Virus record (IMG/VR): IMGVR_UViG_3300042522_000315
Location: 20,105 to 84,104 of that record
Length of the DNA: 64,000 nucleotides
Strand: one strand, 5' to 3'
Origin: a virus
A program made the translations under genes and the position numbers. Numbering within the stretch: position 1 is the stretch's first letter; each line of letters opens with the position of its first letter. This document shows, one piece after another, positions 48,336-48,429 of this stretch. The notes beneath the pieces were generated by a model. That model searched no databases. It had not been told where the DNA came from and worked only from the letters and a program-made list of their open reading frames with translations.

Positions 48336-48429
48336 GCATCTGTAGCCCCCTCCGCTACGAACGGAGAGTAAGGTAACTGGACGTGGACAGAAATGTCCGA
48401 TACAGGTTCGAATCCTGTCAGATGCTCCA
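48336..48429 (+). tRNA. Rearranged tRNA-Arg(ACG) with no D arm before the anticodon arm
   Basis: GCATCTG/CAGATGC-T-CCA; CTCCG-CTACGAA-CGGAG; ACAGG-TTCGAAT-CCTGT. Confidence 0.7.

Follow-up and report, generated by a model that had tools for sequence, protein, structure and literature searches.

A phage tRNA-Arg(ACG) gene with its D-loop-like motif displaced to the 3' side of the anticodon arm

Structure of the gene

The stretch of DNA analysed here (the window: 64,000 nt, positions 20,105 to 84,104 of IMG/VR virus record IMGVR_UViG_3300042522_000315) comes from a freshwater phage and is part of an 84-kb record judged to be about 50% complete; the same DNA is present in 20 lake and river DNA metagenome runs. 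Within a 12-kb array of about 30 tRNA genes it contains a 94-nt gene at 48336-48429 that has the acceptor, anticodon and T arms of a tRNA-Arg(ACG), and in which a D-loop-like motif stands 3' of the anticodon arm. An earlier note on this DNA had described the gene as a D-arm-less tRNA that shares its displaced motif with a UCU copy. All the elements listed there for 48336-48429 are present, the UCU copy exists, and both TAGCC and GTAACTGGA are common to the two copies. The features of the gene, referred to below as rewired, are as follows; connector bases are numbered along the gene, and loop and core bases carry tRNA numbers.

48336-48429, plus strand: rewired tRNA-Arg(ACG) gene, 94 nt
48336-48342, plus strand: 5' strand of the acceptor stem, GCAUCUG, partner of 48419-48425 (7 bp)
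48343-48344, plus strand: U8 A9, found in 193 of 193 parsed members of the family
48345-48349, plus strand: 5' connector G10 C11 C12 C13 C14, with C11 and C12 as the putative 5' strand of a D-stem substitute
C14 in this connector, plus strand: pairs with G33 (48368); the pair is formed in 61 of 102 relatives
48350-48366, plus strand: anticodon arm CUCCG / CUACGAA / CGGAG, anticodon ACG at 48357-48359
48367-48371, plus strand: 3' connector A32 G33 U34 A35 A36, an A-rich bulge that separates the anticodon stem from the D-stem substitute
48372-48373, plus strand: G37 G38, the putative 3' strand of the D-stem substitute, covarying with C12 and C11
48374-48381, plus strand: displaced D-loop UAACUGGA, read as U13 A14 A15 C16 U17 G18 G19 A20
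48382-48401, plus strand: linker CGU, hairpin GGACA-GAAA-UGUCC (48385-48398) and GAU
48401, plus strand: U, the proposed Levitt-pair partner of A15
48402-48418, plus strand: T arm ACAGG / UUCGAAU / CCUGU with a canonical T-loop
48419-48429, plus strand: 3' strand of the acceptor stem, CAGAUGC, discriminator U73 and an encoded CCA
42389-42471, plus strand: rewired tRNA-Arg(UCU) gene of the 83-nt layout

In DNA letters the order is GCATCTG/TA/GCC CC/CTCCG-CTACGAA-CGGAG/AGTAA GG TAACTGGA CGT, followed by the hairpin, the T arm, the acceptor strand and CCA, so that just 7 nt separate the acceptor stem from a perfect anticodon arm. The anticodon loop has U33 and A37, and its sequence CUACGAA is identical in 87 of 87 family members with the anticodon ACG, although the search patterns required it in most of them. 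The 3' connector follows the consensus A-G-(A/U)-A-A in the 106 members that have the layout of the ACG gene.

Standard tRNA finders pass over this arrangement. ARAGORN called 29 tRNAs in the window and left out the genes at 48336 and 42389, and both were missed by a default run of the Rfam tRNA model RF00005. With relaxed filters the same model gave 35.0 bits at 48336 and 33.3 bits at 42389, above its gathering score of 29, in alignments where the D arm is deleted and 20-32 nt are inserted in the variable region (32 nt for the 48336 gene). The gene thus has the acceptor stem of 7 bp, the anticodon stem of 5 bp with a 7-nt loop, and the T stem of 5 bp with a UUCRANY loop that RF00005 describes, and lacks the D arm of 3-4 bp with its own loop at positions 9-26. 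Minimum free energy folding of the gene gave z = -2.8.

Covariation and secondary structure

Covariation was analysed in 102 distinct sequences that share the layout of the ACG gene, and also in the first 47 distinct relatives. Changes on both sides were found in 7 of 7 acceptor pairs and 5 of 5 anticodon pairs; the acceptor stem is 99.9% paired across the 102 sequences (99.9-100% over both sets), and the T stem is 99.8% paired with three covarying pairs. Altogether 617 cells were changed on both sides against 157 in shuffles, and the covariation score reached 0.79, compared with 0.21 in shuffles and 0.08-0.13 when the partners were slid. The earlier note had attributed the differing stem sequences to selection on structure rather than to decay, and had made its reading depend on covariation among homologs. 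Such covariation was found, and since all three classical stems covary, selection on structure is upheld.

The same note had proposed that GCC pairs with GGT in order to extend the anticodon helix. Two of the three pairs stand. Pair 11-38 is CG in 73 relatives, GC in 17 and UA in 12, and is never unpaired; pair 12-37 is CG in 74, GC in 23, UA in 2, AU in 1 and GU in 1, with a single relative unpaired. The third, G10-U39, is paired in only 25 of the 102 relatives and was rejected as a general pair. Two scans in which a base other than G was forced at G37 or G38, so that the pairing could be put to the test, returned 48 loci, nearly all of them with a compensating change. Judged by these changes, a 2-bp helix, at times with extra pairs, extends the anticodon hairpin across the A-rich 3' bulge. 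One of the extra pairs, 14-33, is CG in 49 relatives, GC in 9, UG in 2 and GU in 1, and is unpaired in 41. Pairs 13-34 and 13-36 were also considered and were rejected as general features, being formed in 9-19% of the relatives with this layout.

The extra hairpin is present in 15 distinct members, all of them ACG (15 of 87 ACG members). Its stem covaries (one pair is UA in 4, CG in 3, GC in 3 and AU in 2), and most of its loops are of the GNRA type. A D stem formed with the bases after UGGA was rejected for the ACG layout, in which this connector is variable (CACAU, UGGAAGAU, ACGAAAAU) and offers no complementarity. No support was obtained for a pseudoknot at the level of secondary structure: the helices are nested in all layouts, and only the proposed tertiary contacts would cross.

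The displaced motif and the tRNA core

The D arm of ordinary tRNA-Arg genes on the same phage contigs reads GYUC-AACUGGAUA-GAGC, and therefore the 7-mer AACUGGA corresponds to A14-A20 of a normal phage tRNA-Arg. IMG/VR scans in which G18, G19 or A20 was changed to any other base gave 0 matches each, compared with at least 63 loci that have GGA. The third base of the motif, position 15, and the base immediately 5' of the T stem, position 48, are A/U in 189 members and G/C in 4, with no mixed cases. This pattern follows the rule for the Levitt pair R15:Y48, one of the tertiary contacts in the core of a tRNA. In ordinary tRNAs A14 is partnered by U8, and U8 A9 is the invariant dinucleotide that follows the acceptor stem.

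Taken together, the identity with the D-loop, the invariance of GGA, the covariation of 15 with 48 and the invariance of U8 A9 suggest that the usual core, with U8-A14, 15-48 and the contacts of G18/G19 with the T-loop, would be rebuilt here from strands that follow each other in another order. In effect, the order of the parts suggests that segments 10-21 and 22-45 of a normal tRNA have swapped places. The earlier reading of a tRNA-Arg(ACG) with a D-loop-like motif displaced to the 3' side of the anticodon arm therefore holds, and the word D-arm-less needs correction: the cloverleaf D arm is indeed gone, but the D-loop is kept in another place and a short putative substitute for the D stem exists.

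The tRNA-Arg(UCU) gene and the 83-nt layout

The sister gene at 42389-42471 follows a layout of 83 nt in which the run of five bases A9-N13 divides its pairing between two 3' segments, N37-G38 just before UAAC and N47-U49 just after UGGA. Both resulting helices, A9-N11/N47-U49 and C12-N13/N37-G38, covary in 32 relatives: N10-N48 is GC in 22, AU in 9 and CG in 1; N11-N47 is CG in 22, UA in 4, AU in 4 and UG in 1; N13-N37 is GC in 28, AU in 2 and CG in 2. A few ACG members also use this layout. The UCU layout and the 48336 gene are alike in U8 A9, in the anticodon arm that precedes UAACUGGA, in the AU before the T stem and in their Arg anticodons. Unlike the 48336 gene, the UCU layout has an 8-nt 5' connector and an extra covarying helix of 3 bp, and lacks the extra hairpin. 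The earlier statement that the two copies keep the same architecture is thus right for the motifs and not for the layouts, which are not identical.

Distribution of the family

BLAST detected similar but unannotated sequences in Stenotrophomonas phage DLP_6, the Xanthomonas phages BUDD and X1, Rhizobium phage RHph_I1_18 and Microbacterium phage Zooman, and no match to the UCU copy among cultured phages. Unannotated members were identified in six cultured phages, DLP_6, Zooman, BUDD, XacN1, RHph_I1_18 and Streptomyces phage Braelyn, whose hosts are Proteobacteria and Actinobacteria; the GenBank records of the carriers do not annotate the rewired genes. A motif scan of IMG/VR yielded, among the matches listed, 119 stretches, 71 of which are complete tRNA-like genes representing 47 distinct sequences of 79-95 nt. 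Further scans raised the number of distinct members parsed from viral metagenomes to 193.

Members are defined by U8 A9, a short 5' connector, an Arg anticodon arm, a covarying helix of 2-3 bp between the connector and the bases before UAAC, the motif UAAC(U)GGA, AU, and a canonical T arm, and the 48336 gene has every one of these features. AU precedes the T stem in 187 of 193 members and CCA is encoded in 145 of 193, while the discriminator of the ACG members is U in 44, G in 27 and A in 16. A covariance model, R1, was seeded with the first 47 distinct members, the 48336 sequence included; independent members reach 76-103 bits with it. It scores 88.3 bits at 48336 and 49.3 bits at 42389, and 58-103 bits for members elsewhere, including those of Zooman, RHph_I1_18, BUDD, XacN1 and Braelyn; ordinary tRNAs score mostly 29 bits or less in the window (n = 27) and up to about 38 bits in the related loci. 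A motif scan of 185,579 prokaryote species, with one genome each, gave four matches, all on contigs of metagenome-assembled genomes, so that by this count the family is essentially phage-borne, and it is widespread among phages.

Several elements were met beside the family. In RHph_I1_18 (MN988519; L342) the rewired tRNA-Arg at 2495-2575 lies exactly at the missing locus tag EVB91_035, between EVB91_036 and EVB91_034. In DLP_6 (KU682439; L001) a second unannotated tRNA-like gene, at about 3100-3178, directly follows the rewired tRNA-Arg and has a GUC (Asp) anticodon loop, the T arm ACGGG-UUCGAUG-CCCGU and ACCA. About 80 T5-like Salmonella and Escherichia phages, for example Escherichia phage KookSpook (L338:1470-1544), contain an element that is annotated as "tRNA-OTHER" or not at all, and whose 3' half, GUAACUGG-GGAAGAU-GCAGGUUCGAAUCCUGU, is 97% identical to the rewired family and lacks CCA. 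These coliphage and Salmonella phage matches were rejected as members: only the 3' half (GUAACUGG..GAAGAUGCAGGUUCGAAUCCUGU) is shared, there is no Arg anticodon hairpin, and R1 gives 32.9 bits. Four IMG/VR contigs (L290, L298, L313 and L321) have a small conserved element, CCUGUCG-UG-UAACUGGA-CUGUAU-GGG-UUCGAAU-CCC-UA-GACAGG, in which the D-loop-like motif and a T-loop are placed on an acceptor-like stem without an anticodon arm.

Arginine identity and codon use

The anticodons of the 193 members are UCU (89), ACG (87), UCG (12) and CCU (5), all of them for Arg. In a scan that was blind to the anticodon, an Arg anticodon was read in 80 of 80 matches that have the rewired layout. The 18 matches that were non-Arg or did not parse were rejected as members; among them are ordinary tRNA-Met genes, whose anticodon arm is CAUAACUGGA, a class II tRNA, and small elements that have no anticodon arm. 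The Arg identity set of bacteria consists of A20, C35 and U/G36 together with A/G/U73 (PMC9976931). The 48336 gene has each of these elements, namely C35, G36, an A directly after GG, and U73. By its sequence the A after GG in UAACUGGA corresponds to A20, and it would presumably occupy the place of A20 in space as well.

ARAGORN found no tRNA-Arg in the window, which leaves the two rewired genes, ACG and UCU, as the only Arg tRNAs found. In 35 long open reading frames (ORFs) the Arg codons are AGA (46%), CGU (27%), CGC (12.5%), CGA (7%), AGG (5%) and CGG (2%), and therefore the ACG and UCU pair would cover 98% of them. Across 46 related loci an ordinary ACG gene was found once, whereas ordinary genes for tRNA-Arg with a different anticodon are frequent.

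Discussion

The gene at 48336-48429 is probably a functional tRNA-Arg(ACG) built on a plan other than the cloverleaf. In the mechanism that we propose, the acceptor, anticodon and T arms would be ordinary and the D arm would be taken apart. The equivalent of the 3' strand of the D stem (C11 C12) would stand directly after U8 A9 and would be followed by the anticodon arm; the equivalent of the 5' strand (G37 G38) and the D-loop UAACUGGA would come only after that arm, so that the D-stem substitute would extend the anticodon hairpin. The D-loop would then run as a single strand through the extra hairpin, which resembles a variable arm, into the T arm. This strand order could still build the usual core, with U8-A14, A15-U48 and G18/G19 against the T-loop, and the core would present A20, C35 and G36 to the arginyl-tRNA synthetase of the host, so that the RNA could be processed, charged with arginine and used on the ribosome. 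It would decode the CGU, CGC and CGA codons of the phage. An ACG anticodon is normally edited by TadA to ICG, and here too it would presumably be read as ICG after deamination. The translation system of E. coli accepts even a D-arm-less tRNA (PMC11551756).

Some observations weigh against this interpretation. RNAalifold, applied to the 102 sequences, predicted the three classical helices and not the 2-bp helix; the D-stem substitute is read from covariation, and a helix of 2 bp would need tertiary support. Most of the homologues were gathered with patterns that fix parts of the motif. The four G15/C48 sequences are all of the 83-nt layout, and as few as one or two events may account for them. 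Among the sequencing runs found to hold the stretch there is no RNA run. Finally, an ordinary tRNA-Arg(ACG) is also present in DLP_6, Zooman and contig L062, so that the rewired gene does not in every case simply replace the ordinary one. Since both kinds occur together in these three, the rewired form may offer something beyond replacement.

The same co-occurrence could be explained if the RNA were not a decoder but a mimic of tRNA-Arg, serving as a decoy or sponge for, for example, a host nuclease or toxin directed at tRNA-Arg; its body would then not need to fit the ribosome. It has been described that phage tRNAs counter tRNA-cleaving defences and that differences between phage and host tRNAs cluster around the D-loop (PMC12475279, citing Azam et al. 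2024). On the other hand, most carrier loci, like the window, have no ACG tRNA other than the rewired one, and the anticodons match the codon use of the phage itself. The features needed for charging and decoding are strictly selected: the 7-bp acceptor stem, CCA, the T-loop, GG, A20, U33, the 5-bp anticodon stem and the 7-nt loop. We therefore regard a decoy as unlikely.

Considerably less probable is a tRNA-like RNA with another task, for instance as a primer or in the regulation or processing of the operon, that has merely kept tRNA-like ends. The gene does lie between a perfect promoter and downstream ORFs, and other odd tRNA-like elements occur in the same array, but such a task would not account for A20, for an anticodon loop that is invariant and limited to four Arg anticodons, or for the complementary distribution with ordinary tRNA-Arg(ACG).

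Slightly more remote still is the idea that the RNA is a precursor which cutting and rejoining, or some other processing, turns into a normal cloverleaf tRNA. Algae and archaea do have permuted and split tRNA genes, and Zooman has an RtcB-like ligase about 2.4 kb downstream of its member, in the same 5-kb stretch. In the rewired genes, though, the acceptor halves are already in normal order, and a cloverleaf could be restored only if the molecule were cut twice and ligated twice in its interior; no conserved motif of the bulge-helix-bulge or intron-like type was seen, and the covarying pairs 11-38 and 12-37 point to selection on the rewired fold itself. A decaying pseudogene or a chance tRNA-like sequence, for which the failure of ARAGORN and of the default Rfam search might speak, is refuted for practical purposes by 193 distinct relatives, compensatory changes in every stem, the absence of broken stems and a score of 88 bits with R1.

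If the gene is a working tRNA, it has to be placed among known ones. With the ordinary tRNA-Arg(ACG) of phages and bacteria, a class I cloverleaf, it shares the 7-bp acceptor stem, the 5-bp anticodon stem, the loop CUACGAA, the T arm GGUUCGAAUCC, CCA, the D-loop AACUGGA with G18, G19 and A20, and the rule of A15/U48 or G15/C48. It differs in that the D-loop and the equivalent of the D-stem 5' strand stand 3' of the anticodon arm, in that there is no D-arm hairpin at 9-26 and the junction is three-way and not four-way, and in having the putative 2-bp D-stem substitute and an extra hairpin at the place of the variable arm.

The D-armless mitochondrial tRNAs (metazoan tRNA-Ser and those of nematodes; PMC7609411, PMC9427863) resemble it in the short connector between acceptor and anticodon and in escaping standard finders. 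They have lost the D-loop and the contact of G18/G19 with the T-loop, their T-loops are eroded, and they need adapted partners, whereas the rewired genes belong to phages of bacterial hosts, are longer than a normal tRNA, and strictly keep the D-loop, GG and the canonical T-loop. The loss of G18 G19 and the relaxed T-loop that characterise the mitochondrial type are thus not seen, GG and the T-loop being invariant. In class II tRNAs (Leu, Ser, Tyr), too, a covarying hairpin separates the anticodon arm from the T arm, but their D arm is normal and no bacterial arginine tRNA belongs to this class, and the hairpin of the rewired family is optional; the combination of a long variable arm, a normal D arm and Leu, Ser or Tyr identity does not describe the 48336 gene. 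Viral tRNA-like structures and the tRNA-like domain of transfer-messenger RNA (tmRNA) likewise obtain a tRNA-like shape from a strand connectivity that is not that of a tRNA. Those have no in-frame decoding anticodon arm or have an acceptor pseudoknot, whereas the rewired RNA has all the parts for decoding.

According to a paper from 2024, all known bacterial tRNAs are cloverleaves (PMC11551756), and a 2020 review of non-canonical tRNAs does not mention phages; a full-text search of the literature found no published description of the rewired tRNA-Arg family. If our reading is correct, a large natural family keeps the functional contacts of tRNA with a changed strand order and would be the first exception to the cloverleaf outside organelles. 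It would allow the architecture that is dictated by function (the D-loop/T-loop elbow, the Levitt pair, A20) to be separated from that which reflects history (strand connectivity). There is also a blind spot in annotation: ARAGORN and the GenBank records miss the rewired genes, and phage tRNA sets therefore appear to be without arginine decoders. Since cultured carriers exist (the six phages named above), the function is directly testable, and the rewired design may serve as a scaffold for orthogonal tRNAs.

We also put forward, tentatively and with low confidence, a more far-reaching proposal: that these are working tRNA-Args that rebuild the L-shaped core from another strand order, and hence the first natural non-cloverleaf elongator tRNAs on bacterial ribosomes, and that the rewiring was selected to hide from a nuclease that reads the D arm of ordinary tRNA-Arg, either a host defence or a host-shutoff enzyme of the phage, while A20, C35 and G36 are still readable by the synthetase. 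By analogy, escape from tRNA-directed nucleases would be a plausible reason for the rewiring. As to origin, one may speculate about an intermediate with two anticodon arms, the original one of which was then lost; phage tRNAs with two such arms exist, the 92-nt tRNA-Ile at 43083-43174 being one.

Genomic context and other elements of the tRNA array

Between the tRNA genes of the array lie small ORFs, a SegE-like homing endonuclease, an ADP-ribosyltransferase and a manA RNA. In close relatives the rewired tRNA lies 6 nt after a tRNA-Cys. A candidate promoter stands about 220 nt upstream of the ACG gene:

48085-48113, plus strand: sigma-70-type promoter, TTGACA, 17 nt, TG-TATAAT (extended -10), 12 of 12 consensus matches

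This match to the consensus suggests that the promoter may be used. An ORF of 89 codons at 48102-48371 (plus strand) starts inside the promoter and overlaps the first 36 nt of the tRNA; whether it is a gene is doubtful. Searches of Pfam and PHROGs returned no match for the ORFs 47543-48088, 48102-48371, 48460-49182 and 49192-49536. Neither ARAGORN nor Rfam called a tRNA-Tyr in 42700-54800, and the other amino acids are covered when the two rewired Arg genes are counted. A suppressor-type tRNA (CUA) is located at 52229-52302.

Several further elements of the array depart from the ordinary. The tRNA-Ile at 43083-43174 (plus strand, 92 nt) has two tandem hairpins of the anticodon type, CCUUAUAAU (UAU) and then CUAGAUGAG (GAU-type), and ARAGORN calls a tRNA-Ile of this two-hairpin kind in the relatives L026, L044, L065, L075, L104 and L019. 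The cloverleaf-like element at 44087-44154 (plus strand) is detected only by Rfam (33.3 bits) and not called by ARAGORN; it has no CCA and an ill-defined anticodon loop. At 46667-46748 (plus strand) lies a tRNA-like element with normal D and T arms, a 7-bp anticodon stem, the 6-nt loop CUUCAA and no encoded CCA, for which ARAGORN gives a 2-base anticodon and Rfam a tRNA-Sec at 30 bits; it is also present in relative L075 (1470-1551). The element at 46896-46964 (plus strand) has an acceptor-like stem, the perfect T arm AUAGG-UUCGAUU-CCUAU and, between them, GAUAACUG and a mini-hairpin GC-GAAA-GC, with no anticodon arm; it scores 15 bits with R1 and could be either a remnant or a tRNA-like element of another kind.

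In the middle of the tRNA region, an ORF of 351 amino acids at 49500-50555 (minus strand) has the ADP-ribosyltransferase exoenzyme domain PF03496 (E = 8e-12). The manA RNA motif RF01745 is found at 51945-52140 (plus strand), between tRNA-Met and tRNA-Gly, with 58.5 bits against a gathering score of 55.2.
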